Sequence record: NZ_CP064874.1
Strand: one strand, 5' to 3'
DNA: 64,000 nt
Source: a plasmid
The notes beneath the pieces were generated by a model that saw only the letters and a list, made by a program, of their open reading frames with translations, made no database searches and was not told where the DNA came from. Shown here piece by piece: positions 4,004 through 27,136 of the stretch (the stretch's first letter is position 1; each line of letters opens with the position of its first letter). The position numbers were made by a program, and so were the translations under genes.

Positions 4004-4037
4004 ACCAGACGACCTCCCTCCCGAAAGGAATCCGCTG

Positions 4038-5492: not shown

Positions 5493-5544
5493 CGCGCGGC
5501 CGATGCAGGGGTCGGCGCCGCTCGCACGGCCCGCCCCGCGGAGG

Positions 5545-6282: not shown

Positions 6283-6496
6283 GAGTAACCACAGCGCTCG
6301 ATCCGTCGTTCAGCCGCGTTCCTTTAGCCCACTGGCGCGCAAGAGGCCCGGAATTTCCACTGTCATCTCGCAGGACATCGGTGACACTTCTCGCGGTCTT
6401 GGTGGTAACACTTCGGCCGGTCGTATTGGTAAGTGACCCCTTCTGAGCCTGTTGATTCTCGTGTTCGTCTCGCCATCACGCAGTGGCCCGATAACG

Positions 6497-7954: not shown

Positions 7955-8259
7955 CGATAACGCGCCGCGCGGGGCGGTGAGCACGTTCTGTGTCGAGCAC
8001 GGGATCTCCCGCAAGACGTTCTACGCGATCCGTAAGCGCGTCGCCGAGGAAGGGCCTGCCGCGGCGCTCGAGCCGAGGTCGCGTCGTCCGAAGTCGAGCC
8101 CGTCGAAGCTGAGCGACGAGGTCAAACGGCAGGCAATCGGTGTGCCGGCGGCGTTGGAGCAGTCCGGGCTGGACCACGGTCCGATCAGCGTGCACGACAG
8201 GATGCGCACGCTGAGGATGGACCCTGTGCCGTCGACGGCGTCGCTGGCGCGGATCTCCT

Positions 8260-8329
8260 CTAGGCCGTGTTGATCATGAGGGTTCACTCACCCACCGAGG
8301 AGCGGAACCTCTTGATCAACACGCCCTAG
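8260..8329. mobile_element. 70-bp MITE-like element made of IS5-family terminal inverted repeats
   Basis: CTAGGCCGTGTTGATCATGAGG (8260-8281), a 26-bp spacer, then CCTCTTGATCAACACGCCCTAG (8308-8329). The second IR is the exact reverse complement of the IR at 2891-2912. Confidence 0.55.
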
Positions 8330-9835
8330 GAAGCTGCTGACGTAAAAGCGTGTGTTCGTTCGAGTAGAGGCATCGGCGGCAACTGCTTCGGTCAAGAGAG
8401 CCGAATCGACTCTACGCTGAACGGTTGCTACCCAAAGGTATACGTCCAGACTCAGAGATGGGTTGAAGACCGCTGCATAGTCTGCCTCGTTGTTGAGCAA
8501 TGTCGACGGGCGTGCACGCGCATCATCAGGTCGGCTCAGTCCAATCGCCATCACGGCCTGCCCGAGTGTGGCGATGCTGATGATCTTGTCGGCTGGCTTT
8601 CCGGCGTTCTTGTAGAAGTTCTTTCGGCGGTCGTAGTACCAGCCCTTCGCGGCGAAGTGCGACTCGATCTGGCGGTGGAGATCCTCGGTCGCATGCAGCG
8701 ACGCGTCTGGAACCTTCGTTTGACTGTTGGTCGCTCGGATCACGTCGTCACGAGTGGCCTCGTCGAGGGTCTTGATTACTCTGACCTGGACAGATCGCCG
8801 CTTGTGGCGCTCAAGGTCGACGCCGGTCGCGGTAAGGACATCGTGGATGGCATGCGAGGTCTGCATGCCATTGACGATCTGCACACCCGACAGAGTGAAG
8901 GTCTTCTCCCCGCCGATATTCACCCCTGAACACAGGATCGTTACCCCGTTGTTTAGCCACCAGAAGTCTCGCTCATCGTCGGCTTCGAGAGTTGCCTGCA
9001 TCTGCCTGTTCACGGTGACTGCGCCCTGGAAGTCGCGAACGTTCCAATCGAACAAATGACCGCGGAGTGCCCCCGACTCGTCAGAAAGGAATCGGAAGTA
9101 CTCGGGTAGCGAGACGAGACCGGCATAGGAGTCGCCTTCCGAGATGTAGTCCCGGAACCGGAGCTGGAGGTCATACTCAGGCGTGGCGCTCGCCATCGCC
9201 CACAGCTCCCTCGCGCCCACGAGGCGCGCCTCGACATCTGACCCAATGACCAGCGAGGAGAGCGCCGCGCGGGTGTCGGCGACCTTCTGTGTAACACCCG
9301 CTGACGCGCTCGTGGTGTCGCCGCGTGACACATATGCGAACGTGATCGAGATGCGTGGCGACCGGATACTGAGCAACGTCCACGCCCTGGTAAACAAGCG
9401 AACACGCGCGATGACATCGGCCGAATAGATCCCAGCCAGCTGCTCGTCGGTGAAGTTCAGGTCGAGCAGCTTCTTCGTGCTCGCGTTCACCTTGTCGAAT
9501 GCGTCCTCGCCGAATCCCTCCGAGCGCTTCGCCTGGATGAGCCACAGGGAAATCTCGGCGCCCTTTCTCACTTCGCTCGGCTTGAAGCCGTCCTCAAACA
9601 CGTCAGAGTCCTCGCTGAGGAGGCGGCCGTCGAGGAAGGTGTAGACGGCGTCAAGCCCGCCGTCCAGTCCTCCGCCGATCCTGCCCGCTTCGATCTCCTC
9701 GTCGCTGAGGTTCTGCCCGCTAAGGACCGTCGCAGCAGCGAACACTTCGAACGCAACGTCATCGGGCAGGGGCGTATCTCGACTGTCCTGCGCCGCCTTG
9801 AGGAACTGATCGACAAGGACAACCTCATTGCTCAT
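8288..9835 (-). CDS. AIPR-family protein (abortive-infection phage-resistance-like); last 14 codons and the stop are supplied by the MITE
   Basis: 515 aa. Carries AIPR hallmarks (…DFWWLNNGVTILCSGV…IVNGMQTSHAIHDVL…). The C-terminal residues LGRVDQEVPLLGG* are encoded by MITE sequence. Confidence 0.7.
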   Translation of the reverse strand: MSNEVVLVDQFLKAAQDSRDTPLPDDVAFEVFAAATVLSGQNLSDEEIEAGRIGGGLDGGLDAVYTFLDGRLLSEDSDVFEDGFKPSEVRKGAEISLWLIQAKRSEGFGEDAFDKVNASTKKLLDLNFTDEQLAGIYSADVIARVRLFTRAWTLLSIRSPRISITFAYVSRGDTTSASAGVTQKVADTRAALSSLVIGSDVEARLVGARELWAMASATPEYDLQLRFRDYISEGDSYAGLVSLPEYFRFLSDESGALRGHLFDWNVRDFQGAVTVNRQMQATLEADDERDFWWLNNGVTILCSGVNIGGEKTFTLSGVQIVNGMQTSHAIHDVLTATGVDLERHKRRSVQVRVIKTLDEATRDDVIRATNSQTKVPDASLHATEDLHRQIESHFAAKGWYYDRRKNFYKNAGKPADKIISIATLGQAVMAIGLSRPDDARARPSTLLNNEADYAAVFNPSLSLDVYLWVATVQRRVDSALLTEAVAADASTRTNTRFYVSSFLGRVDQEVPLLGG

Positions 9836-9895
9836 CGAAGATTCCCGCTTCCTGGTCGCGCTCGACCATCGACACGTTCAGCCAACCTAGCTGTT

Positions 9896-10858
9896 TCACG
9901 ACTCGTCTCTATTCACAGTGTCGGGGCCGAACCACTCGGGCGGGACGCCATCTGCCCACTGCTCCAGGGCCGAGTCGTCGATCGCGTAGTAGCCAGCAAC
10001 AAGGTGGCACGCCTTGTAGAAGATCAGGCAAGCGAGACGCACCTGCCAGGCCACCACGCCACGACCGACGGTCCAGGGTCGACGGGCTACACCGTCAATC
10101 TCTATCGGGATCGACTGCTTGTCGACGGTGAGCAGGGACGGGTGCGAGTAGTCCGAGAGCGAGTCGTAGAGAACCTTTGTCTTTCCCTCGAAGCACAGGT
10201 CTGCGAACGATGCAGCCGCGCCACCAAGGCTCGCCATCCCCTGTCCGGCCACAGTCCAGGTCTCGATCAGATCGGGAGAGGACAGGTCGATCTCAACGGC
10301 GGTCTCGCCGAAGATTGCCCTGGCCTCAGCGATCTTGGTGTCGCGGAGCACCTTCGCACGATTCCCGTGCCCTCTATCGAACTTGCCTGCTGTATACCGC
10401 TCTCGCCGTAGCGAGGAGATCGCCTCCAGGTATAGGCGGGCGACCCGCACCTCGCCGGCTTCCACCTGGACGCGCGGATCGAGCAGCCATGCGGCTCGTC
10501 CCGCGAACTCGAGTTCCGCGCGCACGAGCGGCCATAGCGCCACCGCAACTCGCCGCGCACGGAGCAGCGCCTCGACGGCGAGAAGCTGCTGGCTGATTGC
10601 ATCCACGTACAGCCCGGCGCGCTGACCTGCACCATGTTCGACATTAGCTGGAGCGTCCGGCTTCGCTTCACGAAACTGCCGGGCCTCGGTCGCCGCTGGC
10701 GAGCCGTTGGCGGGGAGTACCGCGAGTCCGCGCGCCATCTCCATCCACGCGAGCACAAGGTGGTGGCAGAGGTCGGCGTACGTATCCAACTCCGCGGCCA
10801 ACTCATCCGGCACGTCAACCCACGCGGTATCATTCTCTATCTCGGGTCCCTGGCTCAT
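9896..10858 (-). CDS. hypothetical protein (operon member between the DUF499 and AIPR genes)
   Basis: 320 aa with good GC3. Its start lies 7 bp after the DUF499 stop. No family was recognised. Confidence 0.55.
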   Translation of the reverse strand: MSQGPEIENDTAWVDVPDELAAELDTYADLCHHLVLAWMEMARGLAVLPANGSPAATEARQFREAKPDAPANVEHGAGQRAGLYVDAISQQLLAVEALLRARRVAVALWPLVRAELEFAGRAAWLLDPRVQVEAGEVRVARLYLEAISSLRRERYTAGKFDRGHGNRAKVLRDTKIAEARAIFGETAVEIDLSSPDLIETWTVAGQGMASLGGAAASFADLCFEGKTKVLYDSLSDYSHPSLLTVDKQSIPIEIDGVARRPWTVGRGVVAWQVRLACLIFYKACHLVAGYYAIDDSALEQWADGVPPEWFGPDTVNRDES

Positions 10859-10864
10859 CGACCG

Positions 10865-13800
10865 TCAGTCCATCGACCAGTCGTCGTCGCCGAAGCCGAG
10901 GGTCTTGAGGTTCTCGCGGATCGCCGAGCGCTGGTCGTCGCTGAGCTTGGCGAGCTGCTCGGACTCGATGTCGATCGAGACGCGCACCGGGACGCCGGCC
11001 GTGACGAAGTGCGACACGATCTCCTCGTAGATCTGCCCGGCGTCGCGCACGACGCGGTTCACGGTGAGGTTCTTCGTCGCGTGGAATCGCGTTGGCGCGG
11101 TGGCCGCTGCACGCCCGCCCCCCGAACTCGTCGTCGTTCCCGGCGCTCCTGAATCCGTGCCGGGCGACGACGTTCCCGATCCGCCCGTCGCAGTGCCCGT
11201 CCCGCCTTGCTCGCCTTCGCCACTCTGACCCTCGGTGACCCTAGTGTCAGCTTCGATCTGATGGGTCGCGATAACAGGGTCGACGAGCAGCCCTCCTTGC
11301 CGTACAGCAGCAGGAGCCTTCATGGTCAGGCCGCTGAATCTGCCGTCCTCGTACGAGTCGGCGTAGGCGAAGCCGTCGAGTTCCACGACGAGGGCGTCGT
11401 CAAGGTGCCACACGGCGTCGATGACGACCTTCGGCTGCACGACCTTCGGCATGTAGACGTACTGGCTGAAGTACCCGACCAAGACGTCGAGTGGCACGTA
11501 CGGCTTCTCGCGCCACAGGTTCAGCCGGTTGATCTGCATACGGAGAAGTGACGGCGAGAAAGTGCGAACGACGAACTCGCCTGCGTCGGCCTTCTTGGTC
11601 ACGCGCGCAGCGAGTGTGCCGTCGCCGTTCATTAGAATCGACTCCAGCTCGATCTCGGCGGCGCCGGGCTCCTGAGTCGGAACGAGAATCCAGCGGTAGG
11701 CCTCGCGGATCGCGTCCTTCACCGTCTGCTTCTGCTGGGCAACGCGTGACTCGGCGACTTTGATGTTGTGCTGGTCGAGGTTCAGCGAATCGCGGTTCTC
11801 GAGTATGTACTCCCATGCCATCCGCTGGCGCACGGCATTGAGCAGGATGTCGATGCGGTCGACCTCGGGAGCGAGGAAGACGAGAGAGTTCTTGTGGATG
11901 CGCGCGTTGGTGCCGCGCTTCGTCAGGAACTCGATCGCCGCGTCCTCAGCCACGGAGCGCCCGCGCTTCGAGAAGGGACGGTCGGGTCCGAAGATCACGA
12001 GACCGATGCCCGGGTCGTCCTCGACGTCGATGCTGCCGTGCGGCAATCGATGCACGCGCTCGAACAGGCCCTTATCGGTCTCCTGGCGGACGACCTGCGC
12101 CAGCTCGTCGAACACCTGCTCCTCGTGGTAGGAGTCGGCGCGCTCCTGCACGATCTGCGCGACGGTCTGCTGCAGCGACAGCCAGTACCGGTCCTGGTCC
12201 CGGTTCATGTACTTGCCGAGGTCGCCGAGTCGTCGCAAACCGTCAGCGACGTGCGCGGGGTTGTCGCCCGGGTAGGTCGAACCGAGCACTACGCGCTTCT
12301 GTTCGATACCGCGGATGGTCGCGGCGCTGCCGTCGCGATTGCGGAGGTTGGCCATCGGAGCGGTGCCGAGGAACACACAACGAGCGGCGCGTTTGGTCGC
12401 CATGGACCGGCCGAGGATCTTGATGTCGCTGTCCACGATGTTGGCCGTCGAGGTCTCGCCTGCGACGTCAGCGTCCACGATCGGTTTCCAGGAGTCGTCG
12501 AGATGGTTGGCCAACTCGTCGAAGACCTTCGCGTTGTCGAGCGGGATCGAAGCGGGGAGGATCATCGGTGATCGGTCACCGCTCGTCCAGAGGGCGTAGA
12601 CGACCGTCGCCATGAGGCGCAGTACGCCGCGGGTGCGCTGGAAGCGCTCCAGGGTCGACCAGTCCTTGTAGAGCCGATCGAACAGCTCCGGGTGGATCGG
12701 GTAGGCGGTGCGCATCGATGCGCGGTAGCCGGGCTGCATGACCTCGCTTGGCACATCCGAGCCGTAGCGCACGTAGTGGTCCATGTACTTGTGAACGACG
12801 AGGTCGCGCGCGGCGTCTTGTTCTCGTCCGAACGGCTTGAAGATGCGCCGCCTGACGATCTCGAACGACTCCTCGATCGTCGCCGGCTGCCAGGCAGACT
12901 CCAGACGGTGGATCACGGAGCGGAGGTGTCGCAATGCCTCCAGGCCCGCGGTGCCGCCAACCTCGTGCTCGTTCTCGGTCGGCGTCTCGGCTCCCTGCAT
13001 GTCGCGGACGACGTCGGACGCCGGGAGCGAGACTACGAGGAGCGCGGTCGGGACGGCCTTCACTGCCTCGGTCAGCGACTGCACGAAGGTCATGTGGCCG
13101 TCGAACGTCCCGGCGGGCGCGACCTTCTCACGTGACCAGAGCTGGCGCAGATACGCTACCCACTCGTCGATGAGGATGATGCACGGCCCGTACTTCTCGA
13201 AGAGGTCGGCTAACGCGGTGGTCGTTGGTGGCACCGACTGCTCGTCGTACCGCTTCAGGAGTTCGTACCCGTCGACGCCCCCGAGCTGGTACGCCAGCTC
13301 GCCCCACAGTGTGTTGACGGTGATGCCCTCGGGCTTTGGCATCCCCAGGATTGAGAGGTCGTTGCCGACAAGGACCGCACGATTGACGCTGGCGGGAAGC
13401 TCCGCGACGCCAATGCCGTCGAGCAGCTCCCGCATCCCCAGCAGCTGCTCAGCGGGTACTCCTGCTGCTGCGTGGTAGACGGCCAGCAGCGAGTGCGTCT
13501 TGCCGCCACCGAAGGTCGTCATCAGGTCGATGACCGGTTCTCCACCTCCGCCACTGAGGCGCTTGATCGCCTGCTCTAGAAGGTAGCGCAGGCCGCGAGT
13601 GAGGTAGGTGCGACCGAAGAACTCCACAGGGTCGCCGTACTCGGGGCCGGCCACGCCCTGGTGCACCTGACGCAGGTCTGCGGCGAACTGGGCCAACTCG
13701 AACGTGCCGCGGGCGACATCGTCGTGAGGTTCAATGACGTCGCGCCATGCGGGGAGACCAGTCGAGTCGACTTGCACTGAGAGGGCCCGCTCCTGGGCGC

Positions 13801-14251
13801 GCTGGAGCCGCTTCTGGTCCTCCTCGAACATGAGTCGGCGGAACTCTCGACGCATCTCATCGGCCTTGTCCGCGTGCTGAGCAGCACCGATCGACCGGAG
13901 GATGTGCTCGCCGTCCATGAGCACCCGCTCGGTGCGCTCCGACGAGATTCGCTCTCCGTGCGCCCACTCCTTGCGGGCATCCCACAGTGCAGAGATCACT
14001 CGTTTGTCCTCGAAAGTGAGCTGCTCCTTGAAGACCTGATGCCACTGCTTGTCGAAAACCCAGAACAGGTACGCGGGGTCTGTGGGACTCGGTGAGCCGT
14101 CACGCCCGGTGAGGCCAGCCGTTCGCCCGACCTCGGCGGCCCAGCTGCCGCCGTGCTTGGCTTCAAGGAGCCCGATCATCCACGGGCCGAGCCCTTCAAC
14201 CACGAGGTCGAGTACCCGTCCAACGCGTTCCTTGTTTGAAAGTGCCGCCAT
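10865..14251 (-). CDS. DUF499 P-loop ATPase with an N-terminal Swt1-like HEPN region
   Basis: Walker A TTFGGGKTHSLLAVYH; protein is larger than 1100 aa. The start MAALSNKERVGRVLD (ATG at 14251) overlaps the MTase stop (TGAcATG). The ORF-track N-terminal extension was not used. Confidence 0.85.
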   Translation of the reverse strand: MAALSNKERVGRVLDLVVEGLGPWMIGLLEAKHGGSWAAEVGRTAGLTGRDGSPSPTDPAYLFWVFDKQWHQVFKEQLTFEDKRVISALWDARKEWAHGERISSERTERVLMDGEHILRSIGAAQHADKADEMRREFRRLMFEEDQKRLQRAQERALSVQVDSTGLPAWRDVIEPHDDVARGTFELAQFAADLRQVHQGVAGPEYGDPVEFFGRTYLTRGLRYLLEQAIKRLSGGGGEPVIDLMTTFGGGKTHSLLAVYHAAAGVPAEQLLGMRELLDGIGVAELPASVNRAVLVGNDLSILGMPKPEGITVNTLWGELAYQLGGVDGYELLKRYDEQSVPPTTTALADLFEKYGPCIILIDEWVAYLRQLWSREKVAPAGTFDGHMTFVQSLTEAVKAVPTALLVVSLPASDVVRDMQGAETPTENEHEVGGTAGLEALRHLRSVIHRLESAWQPATIEESFEIVRRRIFKPFGREQDAARDLVVHKYMDHYVRYGSDVPSEVMQPGYRASMRTAYPIHPELFDRLYKDWSTLERFQRTRGVLRLMATVVYALWTSGDRSPMILPASIPLDNAKVFDELANHLDDSWKPIVDADVAGETSTANIVDSDIKILGRSMATKRAARCVFLGTAPMANLRNRDGSAATIRGIEQKRVVLGSTYPGDNPAHVADGLRRLGDLGKYMNRDQDRYWLSLQQTVAQIVQERADSYHEEQVFDELAQVVRQETDKGLFERVHRLPHGSIDVEDDPGIGLVIFGPDRPFSKRGRSVAEDAAIEFLTKRGTNARIHKNSLVFLAPEVDRIDILLNAVRQRMAWEYILENRDSLNLDQHNIKVAESRVAQQKQTVKDAIREAYRWILVPTQEPGAAEIELESILMNGDGTLAARVTKKADAGEFVVRTFSPSLLRMQINRLNLWREKPYVPLDVLVGYFSQYVYMPKVVQPKVVIDAVWHLDDALVVELDGFAYADSYEDGRFSGLTMKAPAAVRQGGLLVDPVIATHQIEADTRVTEGQSGEGEQGGTGTATGGSGTSSPGTDSGAPGTTTSSGGGRAAATAPTRFHATKNLTVNRVVRDAGQIYEEIVSHFVTAGVPVRVSIDIESEQLAKLSDDQRSAIRENLKTLGFGDDDWSMD

Positions 14252-14252
14252 G

Positions 14253-16927
14253 TCAGAAGAGCCCTTCCGCAGTCGTGCGTCCGTCCCCGCTGAGCCGAAC
14301 AAGTTCAGCCCAGGAGTTGATCAGCGCGTTGTACCGTTCCTGATCTGTGGTTCGACCTTTGCGTGCAGCAATATCGTGCAATCGGTAGGCCAGCGCCATC
14401 GCCGGGTCGTGTAGGTCGGACAACCGAGCCATCAACTTGGCCGAGGCGAGTTCGCCGCCACCGTCGATCAGGCGGTCGGCAAGGTGATGCACAGCCTCCC
14501 ACGCCGTCGGTCGCGAATCGTTCGCCGGACTCCACTGCCTGTCCAAGCCACCATTTCCGAGAAGTTGCACCTTATTGGCCTGGCTTGTTGCCACTTGAGC
14601 ACGAACGACGTCATCAACACTTATTCCCAGAGGGCGCACAGCCTTATCAGCCTCGCCGAATGCTGCCGGCGCCCAACCGTGGCTCTCCCACCAACGAACT
14701 GCGAACCGCGATTCCGGATCGAGATCGCCTTCCTGCTCGTCGAGGACCTCGGCGAGTGCTTGATTGATCATCCGAAGCGCTTGGTCCACCTGAACGCGCT
14801 GGCCTGCTTGGTCAAGGACCGCCCTGTAGCGGGAGAAGATCTGCATTCCCGGGCCCATGGCGGCCTGAGCGAGGTCGACGGGGAGTATCGATGCCGCCTG
14901 AAGGTCGCGGACGGCGGTCGACAGCTCACGCCGTAGGGCACGGTTGAAATCGCTGAGCGAGCACGTGAGTGATTCGACACCCCTGGGCCGGCAGACCATG
15001 ACGATGTATGAAGCCACGGCGTTGGTGCCCGCGGAGACCATACGTGCTTCTGTAGTTCCGCGGATCGGCCATGAACCAGTGATCTCGAGGTCGGCGGCGA
15101 TCATGGCGGAGAGGATTGCCGACCACCGAGTCTCCTCGCCCTTTCCCGCCTTTTGCTCTTTTGAGGCATAGACCACAAGCATCGGAAGGCCCGGTGCCGA
15201 CGACCTTTCGAGGTTCCCGAAGGTCTCGGTAAACCCCTGAACGAAGTAGTTCGTCGCTTCCTGCTTGCTGTTGCCATGCCGCGAAGCGACTGCAGTTAGC
15301 TCGCCTGCCTTCGGGGCGGCAACAGTCGAGTAGAGGTCGGGGTGCACCTTTCGTAGCGCTCTCCGATGCCAAACATAGAAGAAGTCCGAGATATCCGCGT
15401 ACCCAATCGCGTCGAAGTACGGCGGATCCGTGGCGACAAGTCCCGGTTGGTCAAGTGTTGCGACTCGAGCGTCCGCCCTGCGAACGGCGGCGGGCGCGCC
15501 GCCGAGCGCTGCGTACGGCAACGCTCGGAGCATGGTCTTGACCATACCGAGCCAATCCCCGACCGATCCTCCAAACACGTTGACCTCAGGAAAATCCCAG
15601 GTCATCGGTAGGTTGTGTGTTGAAAGCGCTGCTTCAGCCTTTGCCTGCGGTTGAACGCGCCAAATGGCCATTGACGAGGAGAACTGCGCCATCTTGCCGA
15701 CAGCGAGACCGAGCAGCGATGTGACTGCCGTCGCCCACTCGTGGTCACCGCCGTCCGCCAGGATCCGGTCGTAAACCCCGGCAACCAGGTCCGCGAATGT
15801 CGCGAGCGTCAACTCCTGGCGGGGTTCATCAGCGAGCTCCACGTTTCCATCCCATAGAGGCCGACGCGGATGCTCTGCCCCTCGGTGTTGATCGGTACGT
15901 CGTCCGACTCGACCCGTGACGCGATCGAGGCGATCGCATCCATCTCTTCCGCCAGCGGTTCCCGATACACACGCCTCTTGCCGCGCATCGTTACGACCGC
16001 TGTCATCCGAAGGCCTAGTCGCCCTGCCTTGCCTTCTCCGCGGAGATAAGGTCCGTCGAGGGTCGAACCGCAGTTAGCGCATGAGAAGACGCCATCGCCG
16101 ATCTTCAGCGAGCTAGCAGGGCCCCCACCCGTCTGGCCGGAGACCACCTTGAGCTGGATGGAGCCAGATTCAGCGCGAATGTCGTACCAGGCCAGGTCCC
16201 CGCCCTTCTTGGAGATCCAGTTCGACGTGAGTAGCGGTGTCGTCGCCCCGCAGGCGGGGCTCGGACATGCCGCCGTGCGTGCCCATAGCCATGCGATCGG
16301 TGTTTCGCCCGCCGGCCACGAGTAGGCCGAGCCAAGGCGCTCGAGAGCCCGCTGCTCAATCTCCTTCGCGTAGAACGTCACATCATCAACTAGACCTTGC
16401 AGCGGATGTCCCGTTCCAAGGCTAAAGAGTCCATCGCTGACCGCCTCAGCAATGCCCTGCCGCCCGGCCATCGCCGGAACTATAGAGGCAATTGTTCGTG
16501 AGATGAGCACCGGAACCGGATTGAGATCGGAGCCGTACGCCGGGAGGCCGAGTCGCTGTGCCTCTATGAGCGTGGAGCCGCCTCCACAGAAAGGATCCAG
16601 AACGGGTGGGACGCCGTTCGGGAACTGTCGCGCGAGCACGCGGCGCGCCTCAGACAGGTCGGTGTCGCCAGGGACGTCTGCGCCGCTGCTCACCATCCGT
16701 TTGATCAGATCCAAGAGATACACCCGCTGATTGTCGTCTTCCGGATCATCGACCAGTGCGGCGAAGAGAAGAGCGCGCCACGCGGGAAGAGGCATAGGCG
16801 CGAACCACTTATGCAGGTTGCGGATAGTCCCCGTCTTGCGGTCCTTGTCCGCCTTGCAAGCCGCGTTGATCTCGTCGAGGGGCAGCGCGACCTCGATCAG
16901 CTTCTTCTTTCGGGCTGTCTCGGTCAC
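14253..16927 (-). pseudogene. DUF1156-family N6-adenine DNA methyltransferase, split into two frames (15809..16927 and 14253..15842): frameshift or sequencing error
   Basis: The N-terminal ORF begins KKLIEVALPLDEINAACKADKDRKTGTIRNLHKWFAPMP (DUF1156). The C-terminal ORF carries DPPY (…LVATDPPYFDAIGYADISDFFYVW…). The two frames overlap by 34 bp, giving about 900 aa combined. Confidence 0.8.
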
Positions 16928-19900
16928 TGCTGGCTCATCTCCGTTGCGTCGTTCCAGAAGGGCTCCCAGTCGTATTCGACGCGCGCCGCGCGAGGATCGA
17001 TGGGCTGATCTATGGGGTGCCTCAGGTAGCGCACTGTCGTCGTGTCATCCTCCGCTACCTGGACGAGCGCGAGCACCGAGTGGTCGGCCTTGTTCAGCGC
17101 AGTGACCGCTTCCTGCCGGGTGAGCACGAAAGTGCGGCCGCCGACGACGCGGCCCTTCACCTCGATGAAGTCGAGACTCCGCCCGGTGTCGGACTCGATG
17201 TCGTAGCCGGGGTTGTTGTGGTGCATCTCTGTCGGATCGTGCCCGAGCGCGTGCTCGACTCGGAGAACGGCATCGACGGCCAGACGCTCCACCCGCGTTG
17301 TCTCCCTGGCACGGTCAGCTGCGCCTTCCGGGTCAGTCTGAGCATCCAGCCATCCCTGCGTGACGACTAGACAAGCGCCGGTCACCCGAGGCGGGCGAAC
17401 CGAGATGTCACGTTCTTGCTCAAGTTCTCGTAGCCGTCGGTCGAGTCGACGGGCCAGGGCCTCGGCCCGTTCCTGCATTTGAGATGCCGGGAGGCGGGTC
17501 TTCCTGCCCGCTCGCTCCTGTTCGCTCAGCTCGAAGGCACGGCGGTCCCAATAGTTGATCTCGCGAGTAAGGCGCTCGCGAACGAGGCGCTCGGTCTTGT
17601 CAACGCGCTCGATGGTGCGTCGGCTGACTTCGTCAGCGTGCTGCCGAGCGATCGTGACCGATGCCTCGCGAATGACGCGACGGTCTAGATCGGCTGCCTG
17701 TGCCCAAGGCTCACCGAGCAGCGGTTGGCTTGCCTCCACTTCCTCGTCAGTGGGGACCTCGAAGTTCGGGATCGGCGAGCCAGTGAGAGGCGTGATGGTT
17801 CCGTCTTCGTCGATACGGGCGTACTGGGCGCGACGCGACACGACACGAGGCTGCCCATCCTGCGCGATGCGTCCGTCGGTGACGTCGTGTTCGAGGAGGC
17901 TGACAACGTAAGGCTGAGTCGTCAGGTCAGAGCGGTCGACGAGGACCGCTCCGCGACGGAGCGCGTCGATGTAGCGGTCGGAGACGACGCTCATCGTGGC
18001 CGACATCAGCGGGTGGCCCGGGTGTAGGAGCGTCGCGAGGCGGTTGTTGCCGTCTACTCGGACGTACTTCGGGTCGAAGGTGACGCGGTAGTACTCGTCG
18101 ACCACGGGCTGGCCGTAGCCGGTAATGCGGTCGCGCTCCTTGATCTCGCCAGGCACTCGCTTGATCTCGAAGCGGTGGCTCTCGCGCATGCGGAGCTGCC
18201 CGCCCACGTCAGCGAACGCACGGTGAAAGAACGCCTCGACGTGGTGGGGCTGGAGGCGGGCCGCCTCGGCTCGCTCCATCTCACGTCTCATGTCGTCGAC
18301 CTCAGTGTCGCTCATCGCGCCGGGCACAAGCTGGTTCGCCTTCAGCAGCTCGGGGATGCCGTCGGCGATCTTGGGGTCGACGACCTCGGTGAGGTAGCGC
18401 TCGCGCTCCGGCCTGTTTGCCTCGCGGATAGCGGCGATCATCAGGTCGCGCAGTGCGTTGCCCTGGAAGAGCTGACCGAGGACGTCGTAAACGCGCCCGC
18501 CGAGCGTGGCGCGCTGCTCCTCGAGCTTCTCCAGCAGCCGCGTGTACACATCGCCCTCGCGGGTGTCATCGGCGACGAGCGACCACATGAAGCACGTGTT
18601 GGGCTGACCAATACGGTGCACCCGCCCGAAGCGCTGTTCGATGCGGTTGGGGTTCCACGGCAGGTCGTAGTTGATCAGCAGGTGGGCGTTCTTATGGAGG
18701 TTCACGCCTTCGCCCGCAGCATCGGTGGCGATGAGGAACACACAACGCTCGTTCTGCTCGAAAGTCTCCTTCGCCTTCTTGCGGTCTTCCCGCTTGGTAC
18801 CTCCGTGGATGGTGATCACGGCGTCGTCTCGGCCGAGGTGCTGAGTCAGACGCATAACCAGGTCGTCGAGGGTGTCCTTGTGCTCGGTGAAGATGATCAC
18901 CTTGCGACGCGCACCGGTGTCATCGCGCATCTCGTCGGTGTCGTCCAAGGTGTCGCGCAGGGCATCCCACTTGGCGTAGGTGGGTGACGATTTCACAGCA
19001 GACGACTTCACGAGGAGCCGATCGACGACGAGGATCTCGGTCTCGAGTTCCTCCGGCGTGCGTGCGGTCGTGGCTCCAGCGATCGCCTGGTCTTCGAGCG
19101 CCTCGCGTTCCTCGTCGGTGAGGTCTTCCAGGTCGTCCCAGTCCTCGGGCACATCGGGGGTGTCCGACTTCACTGCGGCGTACATGCGCGCTTCGCGCAG
19201 CTCGGACTCAAGGCGTGCCTTGCGGCGTTCGAGGGAGCGGTGGATCGCCGCGGGTGATGAAGCAAGGCGACGCTGGAGCGTCGTGAGCGCGAACCCGACG
19301 GCAGTCCGACGACGATTGTCACCCTCGATCGCATCGGCGCGGTTCATCTCGTCACGGACATAGTCGGTGACGGCGACGTAGAGGTCCTTCTCGGCCTGGG
19401 ACAGCTCGTACTTGACCGTGAACGCGAAACGCTCGGGGAACAGTCGCGTGCCCTCGAACGTACGAAGCTCCTCCTTGACCAGACGGCGCATGAGATCCGA
19501 GACGTCGACCTTGCGGCTTCCCTCCCGGGCGACGCCCTCGAAGCGGTCGGAGTCGAGCAGCGCCATGAAGAGCTGGAACTGCTCCTCTTTCCCGGAGTGG
19601 GGCGTCGCGGTCATCATCAACAGATTGCGCGCGTGTTTCCCCAGCTCCTCGGCCATCTGGTAACGCTTGGTCTTCTTGACCTCGTTGCCCCAGACCGTGG
19701 CCGACATCTTGTGGGCTTCGTCGAAGATGATCAGGTCCCAGTCGACCTCACGGGCCTTGTCGAGGATGCCTTCGCTGTTCCGCGCGAGGACGTCGAGTCG
19801 TGCTAGCCAGAGCCCGCCTCGTGCGAAGGGGTTGCCCTCGTGAAGGATCTTGTCGCGAGTGAGGCTCTCGAACTCCAGGTCGAACTTCTCCCGCATCTCC

Positions 19901-20412
19901 TCGTCCCACTGATCGACGAGCACCCCTGGCGAGACGACCATGACATTCGCCGCATCGCCACGGAGCAGGAGTTCCTTGATGAGCAGGCCCGCCATGACCG
20001 TCTTGCCGGCACCCGGATCGTCGGCCAGAACGTAGCGCAGCGGCTGCTTGTGGAGCATGATCTCGTAGACCGCGCGCAGCTGATGCGGCAGCGGCTGCAC
20101 GTCGCTGGTGCCGAGGGCGGCCTGCGGATCGAAGAGGTACGCGAGCTTCATCCGACGCGCCTCAGCGGCCAGGAGGAACGAGTTGGGGTCCGCATCGAAG
20201 CTGAATACTTGGCCGGCCACGACCTCGCGCACCTGCGAGATCGCGTTGGCGAAGACGATCTTCTCGCCAAGCCCGGTGTCGGTACGATATGCCACGTTCG
20301 CCGAGTCGTCAGTGAGGCGCTCGACGGCAACGATCTTCACCGGATCAGGCCCTGCGAGGCCGGTCACGGTCGCGCCAACACGGACGAGATCAAACATCGA
20401 TGAGGTCGTCAC
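16924..20412 (-). CDS. SNF2/DEAD-like helicase with C-terminal DUF3883
   Basis: Contains LADDPGAGKTVMAG (motif I), DEAHK (motif II), and helicase C motifs (…QRFGRVHRIGQ…). The C-terminus …GYDIESDTGRSLDFIEVKGR… is DUF3883-like. It overlaps the MTase start by 4 bp. Confidence 0.85.
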   Translation of the reverse strand: MTTSSMFDLVRVGATVTGLAGPDPVKIVAVERLTDDSANVAYRTDTGLGEKIVFANAISQVREVVAGQVFSFDADPNSFLLAAEARRMKLAYLFDPQAALGTSDVQPLPHQLRAVYEIMLHKQPLRYVLADDPGAGKTVMAGLLIKELLLRGDAANVMVVSPGVLVDQWDEEMREKFDLEFESLTRDKILHEGNPFARGGLWLARLDVLARNSEGILDKAREVDWDLIIFDEAHKMSATVWGNEVKKTKRYQMAEELGKHARNLLMMTATPHSGKEEQFQLFMALLDSDRFEGVAREGSRKVDVSDLMRRLVKEELRTFEGTRLFPERFAFTVKYELSQAEKDLYVAVTDYVRDEMNRADAIEGDNRRRTAVGFALTTLQRRLASSPAAIHRSLERRKARLESELREARMYAAVKSDTPDVPEDWDDLEDLTDEEREALEDQAIAGATTARTPEELETEILVVDRLLVKSSAVKSSPTYAKWDALRDTLDDTDEMRDDTGARRKVIIFTEHKDTLDDLVMRLTQHLGRDDAVITIHGGTKREDRKKAKETFEQNERCVFLIATDAAGEGVNLHKNAHLLINYDLPWNPNRIEQRFGRVHRIGQPNTCFMWSLVADDTREGDVYTRLLEKLEEQRATLGGRVYDVLGQLFQGNALRDLMIAAIREANRPERERYLTEVVDPKIADGIPELLKANQLVPGAMSDTEVDDMRREMERAEAARLQPHHVEAFFHRAFADVGGQLRMRESHRFEIKRVPGEIKERDRITGYGQPVVDEYYRVTFDPKYVRVDGNNRLATLLHPGHPLMSATMSVVSDRYIDALRRGAVLVDRSDLTTQPYVVSLLEHDVTDGRIAQDGQPRVVSRRAQYARIDEDGTITPLTGSPIPNFEVPTDEEVEASQPLLGEPWAQAADLDRRVIREASVTIARQHADEVSRRTIERVDKTERLVRERLTREINYWDRRAFELSEQERAGRKTRLPASQMQERAEALARRLDRRLRELEQERDISVRPPRVTGACLVVTQGWLDAQTDPEGAADRARETTRVERLAVDAVLRVEHALGHDPTEMHHNNPGYDIESDTGRSLDFIEVKGRVVGGRTFVLTRQEAVTALNKADHSVLALVQVAEDDTTTVRYLRHPIDQPIDPRAARVEYDWEPFWNDATEMSQQ

Positions 20413-20486
20413 GACTCTCGTTCACTCCCTCGGTTGGCAAGTTGATCAGGATACGTTGGGCCGGCGACATTGCGGCCGATCGGGGG

Positions 20487-20669
20487 CTAGTCTGTGGCGC
20501 CGGCATCCCCTCGACGCACCCAGTCGTCGACCTCGCTCGCCTGGAACTTCCACAGGCGCCCGACCTTGTGCGCCGGCATCCCCTTGTCGGAGATCCAGGC
20601 ATAAATCGTGTCTTTCGTCACACCCAAGTGCTCAGCGATGTCGTCGGCAGAGAGCCATGGTTCGGACAT
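20487..20669 (-). CDS. small HTH DNA-binding protein (excisionase/AlpA/MerR-like)
   Basis: MSEPWLSADDIAEHLGVTKDTIYAWISDKGMPAHKVGRLWKF…, 60 aa. Confidence 0.6.
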   Translation of the reverse strand: MSEPWLSADDIAEHLGVTKDTIYAWISDKGMPAHKVGRLWKFQASEVDDWVRRGDAGATD

Positions 20670-20717
20670 TCACGCCCCTATGCAGATTGAGCCGGAAGTT
20701 TCCGGGTATGACCGAGC

Positions 20718-21540
20718 CTACCCCGAGCGCTCGGTATCCGAGCCATCGCCATTCGCCCTTGTCGTGCCCTCGCCGCCAATCACCTCGAGAAGCTCCTCGA
20801 GCTGTAGGTGAAGGACGTCGTAGGCCTGCATGTAGAACATGTGATCCATGGCTGACGGCGGTGTGTCGTCGAGGTCCGCGAGTACCTCTCGAGCCTCGCG
20901 GATCGCTGTCTGCAGCCGGGTCTCGATTCCGGGCAGGCTCTGGATCCAGGCGTCGATCACGCTGAACGGGATCGGTGCGAAGCCGTAGGCGTCGACGCCG
21001 ACATGGAACTGGTGGCCGTTGGGGCCGTGGTCGCGGGCATGCGTGTGCCCGTGGAGAAGCGGGATGCCGTCGTCCCAGCGCGGGCGATGCGACGTGTGTC
21101 GATCCTGTTCCTGGCTGTCACCGCCGTACGGGTAGTGCGAGGCAATGATCCTGTACCCGTGGCGCGTCCCTTCGATCACCTCTGGGAGGATCTCCCACCC
21201 CGCCGCTTCGTACATGGGCGTGAATCTCTCGATCGCCCGTTTCGACTGGGTTGCGGGCGAGACGCGATCGTGGTTCCCAGGCACGAGTAGCTTGCGCCCG
21301 TTGAGCCGCGCGGTGAGCCCGATCGATTCCTCGATCGGACCGAGTGCTACGTCACCAAGGTGCAGGACGACGCTGCCTGGTGAGACCGTGTCGTTCCACC
21401 GGCGCACAAGGTCGTCGTTCATCTCGTCGACCGTGGAGTATGGCCGACCGGCCAGCTCGCTGATGCGGGCGTGGCTGAAGTGGGTGTCGGAGGTGACGAA
21501 GTCGACCTGGTCGAAGTCAAACCACGGATATTCACGCATC
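20718..21540 (-). CDS. metallophosphoesterase (calcineurin-like)
   Basis: Contains D-x-H…GDxxD…GNH(D/E) motifs (FVTSDTHFSH, LHLGDVALG, VPGNHDR, HGHTH). The start is taken at MREYPWFDF (21540). Confidence 0.7.
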
Positions 21541-21945
21541 GCCGACTGAAGCTCCGGACTCAGTTTCGTTGAGGCCGAACGCCCGCCGGAGCGTGCGCTC
21601 CGCGTCGCCTGCGGGCTCGGGAGGCAGCTGGGCGATCTCGCTCTGCAGCTGCTCCCGCGCATCTTCGATCAGTCCCCGGTTCTCGTCGCGCCACTCCCGA
21701 ACGCCAGAGTCGCGCAGAAGCCCATGCCCTGCACTGCCGTCGTATCCGAGTAGTAGCTCTGTGCCGAGGGCGGACGCCATGACGCGTGCATCGACGGTGC
21801 GGCTCGCGCGCAGGATGGACAGCGTCGTTGCGGCATCCGCGCCCGACACGTCGACGCGGTAGTTCTGGATGTCGCCGTGCTCGGTTGTCTCGGTGCCGAC
21901 ATGAGTGACGACGATGGTGCGATCGCCGATGATGATCTCGCGCAT
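21532..21945 (-). CDS. hypothetical protein
   Basis: Start taken at MREIIIGDRTIVV (21945). Overlaps the next gene by 9 bp. Confidence 0.4.
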   Translation of the reverse strand: MREIIIGDRTIVVTHVGTETTEHGDIQNYRVDVSGADAATTLSILRASRTVDARVMASALGTELLLGYDGSAGHGLLRDSGVREWRDENRGLIEDAREQLQSEIAQLPPEPAGDAERTLRRAFGLNETESGASVGDA

Positions 21946-21976
21946 GCGACCTCCTGACATCGAGCCGGCCAAGCTA

Positions 21977-22359
21977 TCAGCAGTTGACGCCGGCGCGGCC
22001 GTGGATACGCCCTGGCCGAACGACGTCGTCGTGTCCCGGAATGTAGGCAATCGCGCCGAGTCGGGACCAGTAGCTGATCAGCCAACGGTGCAAGAGATCG
22101 GTCTGCTCGCGGCGTTCGAGCAAGGTGCGGTCCGGGTCTTCGATGATGTCGTCCCAATCGGGGCTCGAGAACACGGCATCGATCAGCTCGGCGCACGATG
22201 GGCCGGTACCGTGTCGATCCCACCACGCGAGAGTCAGTCGCCCTGCTTGGGTTGCGTTCGTGGAGCCCCCGGGTTCTTCGATGGTCCCGATGAGTGCGCT
22301 GAGGTAGGGATCTTCGGCGGCCAGGACGAAGGAATCTTGGTTCAGTTCCGCCGCGCTCA
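21977..22359 (-). CDS. hypothetical protein
   Basis: Starts MSAAELNQDSFVLAAEDPYLSAL. IS copy A sits 25 bp upstream of this start. Confidence 0.4.
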
Positions 22360-22432
22360 TACAGTGCAGAATGCCATACGGATTAGGGCGTGTCTGACAA
22401 AGGTTGAGGGGATCGGTTGAGACGCTGGAGCG

Positions 22433-22828
22433 GTGACGCGGTTTCGGTTGCTTACGGATGCTCAGTGGTCTCTGATCGATGGGATGTTGCCGAGGCCGAC
22501 GGGTCGCCCGGGTCGGAAGTTCTCGGACGCGCGGACGATGCTGGAAGGGATCATTTACCGGTATCGGTGCGGGATCGCGTGGCGCGATCTTCCTGCAGTG
22601 TTCGGCCCGTGGCAGACCGTGTGGACCTGGCATCGCAGGCTCGCGACCGAAGGCACCTGGGACTCGATCGTGCAGTCGCTGATCGCGCAGGCCGACGCCG
22701 AGGGGCTGGTGGACTGGTCGGTATCGGTGGATTCGACGATCACGCGGGCGCATCAGCACGCGACGAACACGAGTCGCCCCACAGGGGGCTGTATCGAATT
22801 ACACGAATCCGGGCGTCGAGCCGCCTGA
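22433..22828 (+). CDS. IS427-group transposase OrfA
   Basis: MTRFRLLTDAQWSLIDGMLPRPTGRPGRKFSDARTMLEGIIYRYRCGIAWRDLP… (DUF4096-type). Confidence 0.8.
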   Translation: MTRFRLLTDAQWSLIDGMLPRPTGRPGRKFSDARTMLEGIIYRYRCGIAWRDLPAVFGPWQTVWTWHRRLATEGTWDSIVQSLIAQADAEGLVDWSVSVDSTITRAHQHATNTSRPTGGCIELHESGRRAA

Positions 22829-22910
22829 TCATGCTATCGGCCGCTCCCGGGGCGGCCTGTCGACGAAGATCCACCAGCTCGTTGACGGGAAGGGGCTGCC
22901 GCTGGTCACG

Positions 22911-23327
22911 GTGATCACCCCCGGACAGGCCGGTGATTCGCCGATGCTGCTGCCCTTGCTGGATCAGCTTCGCGTGGGTCGCCCCGTCGGTCGCCCTCGC
23001 ACCCGCCCGGACGCGGTCCGGGGCGACAAGGCGTACTCGTCCCGCGCGATCCGGTCACGCTTGCGGGGGCGTGGGATCAAAGCCGTGATCCCCGAGCCCC
23101 GCGACCAGCAGGGGCACCGGAAGCGTCGCGGTTCACGAGGCGGAAGGCCTGTCGGGCTCGACACCGACGACTACAAGAACCGCAACGTGATCGAACGCCG
23201 GTTCTGCCACGCCAAGCAATGGCGAGGCCTCGCGACCCGCTACGACAAACACGCGATCACCTACCGCGCCGCCGTCCTCATCCACGCCGCCATCGCCTGG
23301 ACCAGAACGCTGTCAGACGCACCCTAG
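22911..23327 (+). CDS. IS427-group transposase OrfB (DDE; probably expressed as OrfAB by frameshifting)
   Basis: …VRGDKAYSSRAIRSRLRGRGIKAVIPEP…NRNVIERRFCHAKQWRGLATRYDK…. Confidence 0.75.
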   Translation: MITPGQAGDSPMLLPLLDQLRVGRPVGRPRTRPDAVRGDKAYSSRAIRSRLRGRGIKAVIPEPRDQQGHRKRRGSRGGRPVGLDTDDYKNRNVIERRFCHAKQWRGLATRYDKHAITYRAAVLIHAAIAWTRTLSDAP

Positions 23328-23439
23328 CCGGCTGGCCCTGAGTCCGATGAGACGTCGCACAACCGAAGGGATACGAGGCGGTCGCCCTGTCATGGTTCAC
23401 TCGGCGGCGCGCCGGGCGCCGCCTGGCGGAGCCGCCCTC

Positions 23440-25995: not shown

Positions 25996-26129
25996 GCGAG
26001 AGGCCTTTCATGAGGAGACGAGACGAGGGCGCACCTACGAGCCACCACCGAGGATAGCCGACATTTGTCGGAAATCGGAGCGGCTGGGTTCTGCGTGGCG
26101 TCTCCCCATCCCGCTGGCACAATCGACGC

Positions 26130-26696: not shown

Positions 26697-26719
26697 CGGT
26701 ACGCCCCGTCCACAGCCGG

Positions 26720-27136
26720 CTAGGGTGCGTCTGACAGCGTTCTGGTCCAGGCGATGGCGGCGTGGATGAGGACGGCGGCGCGGTAGGTGATCGCGTGTTT
26801 GTCGTAGCGGGTCGCGAGGCCTCGCCATTGCTTGGCGTGGCAGAACCGGCGTTCGATCACGTTGCGGTTCTTGTAGTCGTCGGTGTCGAGCCCGACAGGC
26901 CTTCCGCCTCGTGAACCGCGACGCTTCCGGTGCCCCTGCTGGTCGCGGGGCTCGGGGATCACGGCTTTGATCCCACGCCCCCGCAAGCGTGACCGGATCG
27001 CGCGGGACGAGTACGCCTTGTCGCCCCGGACCGCGTCCGGGCGGGTGCGAGGGCGACCGACGGGGCGACCCACGCGAAGCTGATCCAGCAAGGGCAGCAG
27101 CATCGGCGAATCACCGGCCTGTCCGGGGGTGATCAC
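26720..27136 (-). CDS. IS427-group transposase OrfB (copy B)
   Basis: Identical 138-aa product to 22911..23327. Confidence 0.75.
   Translation of the reverse strand: MITPGQAGDSPMLLPLLDQLRVGRPVGRPRTRPDAVRGDKAYSSRAIRSRLRGRGIKAVIPEPRDQQGHRKRRGSRGGRPVGLDTDDYKNRNVIERRFCHAKQWRGLATRYDKHAITYRAAVLIHAAIAWTRTLSDAP

Follow-up and report, generated by a model that had tools for sequence, protein, structure and literature searches.

In the 64,000-nucleotide stretch of DNA analysed here (the window), hmaB, the methylase gene of an Hma defence locus, is broken by the loss of one C from a short homopolymer; close relatives preserve the intact ancestral allele, and both operon partners, hmaA and hmaC, are intact. 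The most likely explanation, with a probability of roughly 0.65, is a genuine and tolerated loss of function of hmaB caused by a very recent 1-bp deletion. Judging from gene content and profile matches, the locus is an Hma / Type-1 BREX-related system, already known as an anti-phage system, and a member of Hma whose hmaB is either pseudogenised or mis-sequenced. Coordinates of the features are collected in Table 1.

A one-nucleotide deletion splits hmaB

Two minus-strand ORFs, 15809..16927 (372 aa) and 14253..15842 (529 aa), overlap by 34 bp in the ORF listing and are the halves of hmaB, a DUF1156 N6-adenine methylase gene. An earlier note on this DNA had recognised DUF1156 N-terminal homology in the former ORF and a DPPY motif in the latter, and had proposed that a frameshift splits a methylase of about 900 aa combined; the ORFs, recovered exactly, the motifs and the PADLOC profile all bear this out. 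The sequence KKLIEVALPLDEIN occupies residues 8-21 of ORF 15809..16927, which also contains motif I (DPFCGGGST, 16571..16597), and DPPY lies at 15417..15428 within ORF 14253..15842. Since the two products match a single PADLOC HmaB profile collinearly, the N fragment at positions 135-427 (E 5.6e-63) and the C fragment at positions 467-961 (E 2.6e-140), they represent one gene in two frames and not a chance arrangement. The 34-bp overlap merely marks the first GTG of the second frame (15842, the start called by the ORF caller); the zone open in both frames extends over about 88 codons. The locus belongs to a Microbacterium paraoxydans record of 177,760 bp, and the right part of the window looks plasmid-like.

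Two alignments place the lesion, one with 20 homologues and one, at the DNA level, with near-identical contigs. The only gap in the latter falls in the C run at 15821-15824 (GGGG on the plus strand), between the codons for Pro369 and Arg370, where the window has four Cs and all relatives have five; a homopolymer at the break was among the features that the earlier note had proposed to look for. The RQ of the NPRQ motif is invariant among the 20 aligned homologues. The 5' frame ends with three out-of-frame codons followed by TGA. In the window, hmaB is not a single ORF of about 900 aa and becomes contiguous only once one C is added; the ORF then spans 891 aa and includes the conserved NPRQ motif. 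The two "DUF1156 domain-containing proteins" of GenBank and RefSeq, to which the frame products are identical (P0125, QXE31679.1, for the 5' frame and P0129, QXE31678.1, for the 3' frame), are thus really one frameshifted hmaB, a routine annotation point.

Table 1. Features of the hma locus and of the island that carries it
Feature	Position	Strand	Basis or remark
Mobile island with Hma and AbiU, 31,344 bp	2542..33885		inserted in motif-I codons of an MmeI-family gene
5.4-kb transposon-like insert disrupting abiU	2896..8325		alignment to intact copies
abiU/AIPR gene, 5' part	8326..9835	-	PADLOC AbiU, E 1.5e-168
320-aa gene adjoining hmaC, function unassigned	9896..10858	-	no match in Pfam, PADLOC or NCBIfam profile searches
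hmaC, HEPN_Swt1 + DUF499 AAA+ ATPase, intact, 1128 aa	10865..14251	-	PADLOC, Pfam
hmaB 3' frame	14253..15820	-	remaining TRD insert, DPPY motif IV, C-terminal HTH-like region
hmaB lesion, 1-nt deletion, C4 run	15821..15824	-	sole gap in 12.2-kb alignments to L001-L008
hmaB 5' frame	15809..16927	-	DUF1156 helical domain, SAM motif I, Cys-rich part of TRD insert
hmaA, SNF2 helicase + C-terminal NOV_C (PD-(D/E)xK) nuclease, intact, 1157 aa	16924..20397	-	PADLOC, Pfam
IS-flanked TetR/MMPL composite transposon in island backbone	22384..27667		absent from the SRR26266918 island copy
Island recombination module, four genes, overlapping stops/starts	28081..33899	-	profile matches

Intact alleles and intact partners

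The island recurs, at 99.86-100% identity and with hmaB contiguous, in at least nine independent assemblies. Across the 12.2-kb alignments of L001-L008 with the window, the missing C is the only gap; L108 equals the window across 5,941 bp with 0 mismatches and 1 gap, and both L108 and L106 differ from it by nothing but the C over about 6 kb. At the protein level, the repaired HmaB matches P0130 (SRR28910881) in every residue, and P0001 and P0121 (Microbacterium sp. MMO-113) at 99.8% identity; WP_336643065.1 is the MMO-113 product of the intact allele. All 120 homologues among the matches listed are single contiguous proteins of about 890-914 aa, so that the comparison with orthologous loci suggested in the earlier note yielded a contiguous ORF in all near-identical copies as well as in these homologues.

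Compared with the L001 allele, hmaB in the window differs by five synonymous and two non-synonymous changes, which indicates purifying selection until recently. Pseudogene decay, considered on account of a substitution excess in hmaB (7/13 relative to the L001 allele), was rejected because five of these seven are synonymous. Within the same loci, HmaB is 59-61% identical, compared with 94% for HmaA and 89-91% for HmaC, a greater divergence that is expected for a specificity determinant. A megablast search of PLSDB with positions 13500-17500 gave no match, so the Hma island is on no plasmid of that collection; in a scan of GTDB representatives, the closest copy was 74% identical (Sinomonas terricola), with none nearer.

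The partners are full-length, as the earlier note had stated. HmaA matches the PADLOC HmaA profile over residues 10-1159, contains the Pfam domains SNF2-rel_dom, ResIII, Helicase_C and NOV_C, and is residue-identical in three other assemblies. HmaC, with Pfam HEPN_Swt1 and DUF499 domains and the Rx4H HEPN motif, has the same length in all relatives. The SNF2 + NOV_C composition of HmaA and the DUF499 ATPase of HmaC are both those of the system, in which the HEPN fusion is optional, and the three genes are co-oriented on the minus strand (20397 to 16924, 16927 to 14253 and 14251 to 10865). Experimental anti-phage support within Hma concerns HmaA only (PMC11232893). A role of the adjoining 320-aa gene as a fourth Hma component was rejected: it lies beside Hma in just 1 of the 79 distant loci.

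Origin of the lesion

The earlier note had offered three options for the break, namely a sequencing indel, a programmed frameshift and genuine inactivation. We infer a real mutation here rather than an assembly artefact. Some 36 kb of the window align at 99.5-100% identity to independent records, more than 10 in number, and an audit of this part, which covered island copies plus plasmid matches (the latter took the place of look-ups with the relaxase and a 511-aa ORF, which gave no match), found no indel except the one in hmaB, which implies a low per-base indel error rate. The 26 kb of island sequence include 133 G/C runs of at least 4 nt and 26 of at least 5 nt without any other indel, so the assembly does not appear to be homopolymer-error-prone; the number of errors expected in a 2.7-kb gene is about 0.003-0.08. 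Real, structurally unambiguous knock-outs of hmaB, furthermore, occur in 2 of about 10 sibling islands. These observations argue against the less likely, though quite possible, alternative that the strain has C5 and an intact 891-aa hmaB, and that the consensus lost one homopolymer base. Loss of one C from C5 is also the error most typical of long-read consensus sequences, and hmaB has very few G/C runs of 5 nt or more, one of which contains the lesion. Apart from this C, L108 and L106 match the window fully, so that no evolutionary time for a mutation is visible; the repaired protein is identical to P0130. The search turned up no second, independent assembly of this strain: the hmaB fragments occur in the NCBI record only, with exact-product look-ups of both in the contig index empty and the cluster table including the fragments.

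A programmed -1 frameshift, transcriptional slippage or a phase-variable homopolymer switch regulating HmaB is highly improbable. By sequence reasoning, the C4 run offers tRNA-Pro a second, overlapping CCC to pair with, and a -1 slip at this point would yield NPRQ exactly as in the wild type. Phase variation can also occur in methylase genes of related systems, for instance at the pglX G-tract of Streptomyces coelicolor. Against this, the shift is not conserved, with C5 in all near-identical copies and contiguous genes in the 120 listed homologues. No slippery X_XXY_YYZ heptamer is present in the 88-codon zone with both frames open, and the downstream fold (MFE -41.4 kcal/mol, z = -1.07) is unremarkable, with 25 of 200 shuffles folding as well. 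Conservation, heptamer and stimulatory structure, the hallmarks of programmed -1 frameshifting as in dnaX and the IS3/IS5 transposases, are thus all lacking, and of the three options of the earlier note this one was rejected; between the other two, genuine inactivation is favoured. As for phase variation, a tract of 4-5 nt is far below the length required for high-frequency slippage, and tract lengths do not vary as at a phase-variable locus: C5 is found in at least nine assemblies and C4 in the window only, with no C6 and no further C4 variants among at least 10 copies.

Even less plausible is a functional split methylase, in which the 372-aa and 529-aa polypeptides would both be translated and would join to form an active enzyme: GenBank and RefSeq do annotate the fragments as two proteins, and motifs I and IV are on separate fragments with an inserted domain between them, where some methylases tolerate splitting, but no homologue is so organised, GTG 15842 lies inside the upstream ORF without a convincing Shine-Dalgarno sequence, and the break falls at the conserved NPRQ motif within the TRD insert.

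Expected consequences of hmaB loss

If the deletion is genuine, translation would stop after 369 native and three aberrant residues, with the SAM-binding motif I left on one side of the break and both the catalytic DPPY motif and the C-terminal DNA-binding region on the other, so that no active methylase is expected; trace -1 slippage on C-CCC could still remake some wild-type HmaB. HmaB is the predicted N6-adenine methyltransferase and specificity component of the hmaA-hmaB-hmaC operon, and the only target-recognition (TRD) insert of the system sits in this methylase (PMC12839542); its loss is accordingly expected to give an r-m- phenotype. The DNA-discriminating function would be wholly off, rather than self-restriction unleashed, and HmaA and HEPN-HmaC would stay intact without a specificity partner. 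By analogy with BREX PglX or Type I/III Mod, this state is likely to be non-toxic.

The earlier note had expected that loss of the methylase would be toxic unless the effectors were dormant. This expectation is not supported, because hmaB is disrupted by IS in two other near-identical islands and hmaC is intact in both. One insertion is at CTAG 16014-16017 (JGI 3300045612 and SRR35439075), and in the other an IS end abuts position ~15299 (JGI 3300049574); hmaA is seen intact in JGI 3300045612, and the SRR35439075 and JGI 3300049574 contigs end before it. Also against toxicity are the confinement of the TRD insert to HmaB, the reported non-toxicity in E. coli of HmaA expressed without HmaB, and the absence of hmaB from about 15% of hmaA loci (PMC11232893). 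HmaB had no effect on T4 in the same study (Liu et al. 2024). The deletion and the two IS knock-outs in sibling islands provide natural evidence that loss of the Hma methylase alone is tolerated, which bears on the wiring of Hma / BREX-related systems, and islands with intact and broken hmaB form natural isogenic pairs usable for methylome and phage assays.

If the 1-nt deletion is genuine, hmaB has been hit independently three times in near-identical islands, by this deletion and two IS insertions, with hmaC always intact and hmaA intact wherever visible. Three of the four disruptive events fall in 21% of the module length (P ~0.03), a value made less striking by the IS target sites, 3 of 10 CTAG sites lying in hmaB, and a count partly biased in that the fragments were found through the hmaB protein cluster. 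We tentatively suggest, as a joint reading that is speculative at this point, that hmaB is a recurrently selected off-switch and that the island described below hunts resident methylase genes. Were the off-switch real, either Hma restriction would strictly need HmaB, in a BREX-like wiring, or HmaA and HEPN-HmaC would form a methylation-independent abortive module; the island, for its part, would disable a competitor RM system on arrival.

The mobile island

The junctions of the island that carries the hma operon read FLDPA/... and .../CGCGNFL, and its precise removal restores a 945-aa ORF with full MmeI architecture (empty site, FLDPACGCGNFL). Identical island ends occur in at least seven genomic contexts, with about 6-7 contexts besides that of the window, and each time a methylase gene is interrupted at its motif-I codons. 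Insertion is into the stretch of motif I that encodes DP(A/T/F)(C/T)G, and the resident genes, all with the conserved motif I (DPxCG), are Type IIG, Type ISP and Eco57I-like methylase genes. Integration into a tRNA gene was rejected, as none flanks the island. A defence island whose integration sites are the SAM-binding-motif codons of other DNA methylase genes is the more unusual by-product of the analysis; a literature search for mobile elements targeting methylase genes found nothing relevant, which is no proof of novelty.

Besides the hmaB deletion, the island in the window carries further real inactivating insertions. There are two transposon insertions, one of which kills abiU: in L001-L008 the intact gene encodes 586 aa. 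Homology to these copies stops at 8326 and picks up again at 2895, with the 3' part of abiU at 2640..2895; the ORF of the 5' part extends into the insert as far as 8288. The 5.4-kb insert has a 5-bp duplication (CTAGG) and terminal inverted repeats, and carries an amidase and LamB/YcsF with a nested ISL3 element (6485..7966).

Comparison with known systems

The island resembles the SE / GInt / Tn554-type elements, which are tyrosine-recombinase transposons (PMC10214605, PMC5385486), in its imperfect inverted-repeat ends, site-specific insertion and 5-6 nt coupling sequence from the previous site; at a Type ISP target with CCTTC as its native sequence, the left copy is still CAGCG. It may also resemble them in its four-gene end module, which comprises an ordinary tyrosine recombinase, two large proteins, one of them a candidate tyrosine recombinase, and a small coiled-coil protein. 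Of the module's products, the 495-aa protein clearly belongs to the tyrosine recombinases (E 1.3e-11) and the 701-aa protein matches Phage_integrase weakly (E 0.0088); the 606-aa protein and the 139-aa coiled-coil protein gave no profile match. Unlike these elements, the island has an actinobacterial host and a methylase motif-I target, and the likeness is one of layout and ends.

The Hma system consists of a helicase-nuclease (HmaA), a methylase (HmaB) and an ATPase (HmaC) (PADLOC, Payne et al. 2021, PMC8565338; Liu et al. 2024, PMC11232893). The locus shares its gene order hmaA-hmaB-hmaC on one strand with overlapping stops and starts, the SNF2 and NOV_C domains of HmaA, and PADLOC matches for HmaA, HmaB and HmaC at E = 0, 2.6e-140 and 9.9e-268; it departs from the usual form in the frameshifted hmaB and the N-terminal HEPN fusion of HmaC and, unlike about 63% of Hma loci, has no genes embedded between the hma genes.

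Frameshifts in a homopolymer of a methylase or specificity gene, as in the pglX G-tract of S. coelicolor, switch multi-protein RM-like systems off, and the host survives. The hmaB lesion would be of this kind, like those in BREX PglX, Type I HsdM/S and Type III Mod alleles, except that the hmaB tract is only 5 nt and there is no sign of reversible switching. The locus further resembles the Type-1 DUF499-centred BREX-related (BR) systems with HEPN fusion, which have a core of ATPase, N6-methylase and Swi2/Snf2 helicase-REase and were described in 1370 taxa (PMC12839542); the DUF1156 helical N-terminus, the TRD insert (after core strand 2 in Type-1 BR) and the HEPN-DUF499 fusion are common to both, and Type-1 BR is the same family as Hma under another name. 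In the logic hypothesised for Type-1 BR, the methylase protects self and the helicase-nuclease restricts (PMC12839542). The recurrent knock-outs confined to hmaB fit better with a BREX-like dependence of restriction on the methylase than with classical, independent R and M activities.

Probable disruption of hmaB by loss of a single nucleotide

By its profile matches, the locus is the Hma system of PADLOC (PMC8565338), renamed a Type-1 DUF499-centred BREX-related system, HEPN-fused variant (PMC12839542). The earlier note placed the DUF1156 N-terminus and DPPY of its methylase in two ORFs overlapping by 34 bp, and the ORF boundaries agree exactly, with the Pfam match and the motifs in the ORFs named (see the table). 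The 372-aa and 529-aa products match the PADLOC HmaB profile collinearly, at positions 135-427 (E 5.6e-63) and 467-961 (E 2.6e-140). Both come from the 177,760-bp record of Microbacterium paraoxydans, where they are annotated as two distinct DUF1156 proteins (P0125, QXE31679.1 / WP_217316616.1, and P0129, QXE31678.1 / WP_217316615.1, respectively). The 34-bp overlap is without biological meaning; its edge reflects only where a GTG first occurs in the downstream ORF's frame, and the two frames are jointly open over ~88 codons.

Features of the Hma locus, its carrier island and the plasmid backbone
Feature	Coordinates	Strand	Description
hmaB 5' ORF	15809..16927	-	372 aa; DUF1156 N-terminus (Pfam E 8.5e-13), SAM motif I
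SAM motif I DPFCGGGST	16571..16597	-	in first (372-aa) hmaB ORF
hmaB 3' ORF	14253..15842	-	529 aa; carries DPPY
DPPY	15417..15428	-	in second (529-aa) hmaB ORF
hmaA	16924..20397	-	SNF2 helicase and NOV_C nuclease; PADLOC E = 0
hmaC	10865..14251	-	HEPN_Swt1 and DUF499; PADLOC E 9.9e-268
320-aa gene	9896..10858		between hmaC and abiU; kept in every island copy
abiU halves	8326..9835 and 2640..2895		AbiU/AIPR gene; every relative has a 586-aa product
Transposon in abiU	2896..8325		5.4 kb; CTAGG duplication, 44-nt imperfect terminal inverted repeats
Nested ISL3 element	6485..7966		37-nt IRs; inside abiU transposon
TetR/MMPL composite transposon	22384..27667		in island backbone; flanked by IS427-like IS copies (DUF4096/DDE_Tnp_1)
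Island with Hma-AbiU cargo	2542..33885		31,344 bp; junctions ~2541/2542 and ~33885/33886
Island recombination module	one end of island		four genes: 495, 606, 701, 139 aa
Split MmeI-family gene	halves 1411..2541 and 33886..35592		break in motif-I codons, between FLDPA and CGCGNFL
IS256/Mutator transposase	50551..51786		plasmid backbone
MobF/TrwC relaxase	58786..62586		plasmid backbone

The position of the lesion is settled by DNA comparison with near-identical contigs. Contigs L001-L008, from seven independent sequencing runs, align to the window at 99.88-99.97% identity over 10.3-12.5 kb, with 3-14 substitutions and one gap; this gap is a missing C, in a run of five (C5) in all of L001-L008 and of four (C4) in the window. 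Contig L108 (ENA ERZ28621238) shows 1 gap and not a single mismatch against window positions 21323..15384. Around the break, the minus strand reads ...ATG AAC CCC GCC AGG AGT TGA; one C put into the CCCC run (15824..15821) yields AAC CCC CGC CAG GAG TTG (N-P-R-Q-E-L) and a single ORF of 891 aa. The repaired product is residue-identical to P0130 (SRR28910881) and one or two residues off each of P0001 and P0121 (Microbacterium sp. MMO-113, WP_336643065.1). Alignment to 20 homologues puts the change of frame precisely after the P of a conserved (T/N)PRQ motif and before its R; the RQ of this motif is invariant. The contiguous ORF that the earlier note proposed to seek in orthologous loci is present, with the shift absent from all near-identical copies and from the homologues listed.

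In the operon, which runs hmaA, hmaB, hmaC, the partners of hmaB are intact, as had been claimed: exact copies of the HmaA product occur in three other assemblies, and HmaC is 1128 aa everywhere compared, with the Rx4H motif present. For this system, the target-recognition insert has been placed in the methylase itself, after core strand 2 and ahead of motif IV (PMC12839542), and the break in hmaB maps inside this predicted insert. Two loci from other genera, L018 (Cellulosimicrobium cellulans) and L021, share 94% identity with the window proteins in HmaA and 89-91% in HmaC but merely 59-61% in HmaB, which is consistent with a specificity role of HmaB; the methylase/specificity gene evolves, or is exchanged, much faster than its partners. 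The 320-aa gene has no match in Pfam, PADLOC or NCBIfam, and a homologue (60% identity) adjoins Hma in one distant locus only, L018.

Origin of the frameshift

The lesion is an ordinary 1-nt homopolymer deletion, in a methylase gene belonging to a defence system described before, and we put the probability that it is a genuine mutation at about 0.65. Less probably, C4 is a sequencing or assembly error: a C5-to-C4 change is a classic consensus error, and the window matches L106 and L108 completely apart from the lesion C, so that no elapsed evolutionary time is visible. However, when ~26 kb of the island was compared with independent assemblies (2523-2895, 8326-22387, 22384-27667 and 27662-33909) and ~10 kb of the backbone with independent records (50492-60500), dozens of substitutions were found and no further indel, although the island part alone (26 kb) contains 133 G/C runs four or more nt long and 26 that reach five or more; homopolymers are therefore not a weak point of the consensus. 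Moreover, sibling islands carry structural hmaB knock-outs, impossible as sequencing artefacts, and the window's own island holds two more real insertions, the abiU and TetR/MMPL transposons.

Programmed frameshifting, also suggested previously, was rejected, with the shift absent in every near-identical copy and in all 120 homologues among the matches listed. The slippery motif to be checked for, an X_XXY_YYZ heptamer, does not occur within the zone open in both frames, and the 100 nt downstream of the shift have no folding advantage over shuffled sequences (z = -1.07). Contingency-type switching was discarded, the C4/C5 tract being too short and no further tract lengths occurring. If tRNA-Pro were to slip spontaneously by -1 on C-CCC, the wild-type sequence would be restored, and the C4 allele could therefore be slightly leaky.

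Recurrent loss of hmaB

Contig L106 (JGI 3300045612) follows window 22510..16014 at 100% identity up to CTAG 16014-16017, where an IS427-like IS begins; L005, from the same sample, and L009 (SRR35439075) carry the remaining hmaB from 16017 onward, with C5. In L109 (JGI 3300049574), the end of an IS427-like element adjoins hmaB at ~15299. These two disruptions are independent of each other and of the window deletion. On all IS-disrupted contigs of the three samples, hmaC is intact, as is the 320-aa gene; hmaA was seen intact in JGI 3300045612 only (L106), the recovered contigs of the other two stopping short of it. Intact hmaB island copies were found in at least 8 other samples.

Although hmaB makes up just 21% of the module, it took three of the four disruptive events (P about 0.03). 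This count carries ascertainment bias from the hmaB cluster look-up, and the module has 10 CTAG sites, 3 of which are inside hmaB. Statistical support for preferential hitting of hmaB is weak. Of the 13 substitutions that separate the window from the L001 allele, 7 are in hmaB, and 5 of these 7 are synonymous; hmaB was therefore under selection until very recently.

The carrier island

Precise removal of the island restores an ORF of 945 aa in which the five MmeI domains are complete and the methylase domain is matched without a break. In SRR26266918, the island lies in a Type ISP gene, between a 932-aa Mrr-helicase-coupler part and a 673-aa Type_ISP_C part, and in several other assemblies the same island ends are inside differing Eco57I-domain methylase genes (contigs compared: L004/L099, L005/L101, L006/L100, L008/L104, L103 and L105). 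Every insertion falls within motif I, where D-P-(A/T/F)-(C/T)-G is encoded. Within the recombination module, the 495-aa protein is a tyrosine recombinase and the 701-aa protein has a weak tyrosine-recombinase match (E 0.0088). The left junction in the Type ISP context retains 5 nt, CAGCG, of an earlier DPA-type site, resembling the carry-over of coupling sequence by Tn554 and SE elements (PMC10214605). Judging from these features, the island looks like a Tn554/SE/GInt-like element targeting DNA methylase genes; a literature search for such a methylase-gene-targeting mobile element found no report, and the carrier is more unusual than the frameshift.

The abiU transposon contains an amidase, LamB/YcsF cargo, the ISL3 element and an HTH ORF. 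At the edge of the insert, its terminal repeat occurs a third time (8260-8281), opposed across 10 nt to the outer repeat (8300-8329); the two make up a MITE-like inverted-repeat pair of 70 bp (8260..8329). The TetR/MMPL unit has 99.9-100% identical copies in CP014313.1 (L089; 3.54-Mb complete genome) and L090-L098, many of the copies being Tara Oceans marine metagenome contigs. To the right, at 36000..64000, the window consists of a mosaic, plasmid-like backbone, 86% identical over 12 kb to a Microbacterium sp. YJN-G plasmid; plasmids of Rhodococcus, Glutamicibacter and Microbacterium sediminis share the segments with the IS256/Mutator transposase, aromatic-catabolism genes and the relaxase at 99.5-100% identity.

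Consequences of HmaB loss

The earlier note expected loss of the methylase to be toxic in all cases but that of dormant effectors; the evidence points the opposite way. In near-identical islands abundant enough for assembly, hmaB alone was lost three times, with hmaA seen intact where covered. Liu et al. (PMC11232893) report that E. coli tolerates HmaA made from the native promoter in the absence of HmaB and is still protected from T4, and that hmaB is missing from ~15% of hmaA loci. The locus provides a natural hmaB-minus genotype, together with neighbouring evidence for recurrent hmaB loss.

HmaB holds the sole recognisable specificity module of the system. Without this methylase/specificity protein, the complex would be unable to select DNA, and the phenotype would therefore be r-m-. 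By analogy, the simplest model with this phenotype would be BREX-, Type I- or Type III-like wiring.
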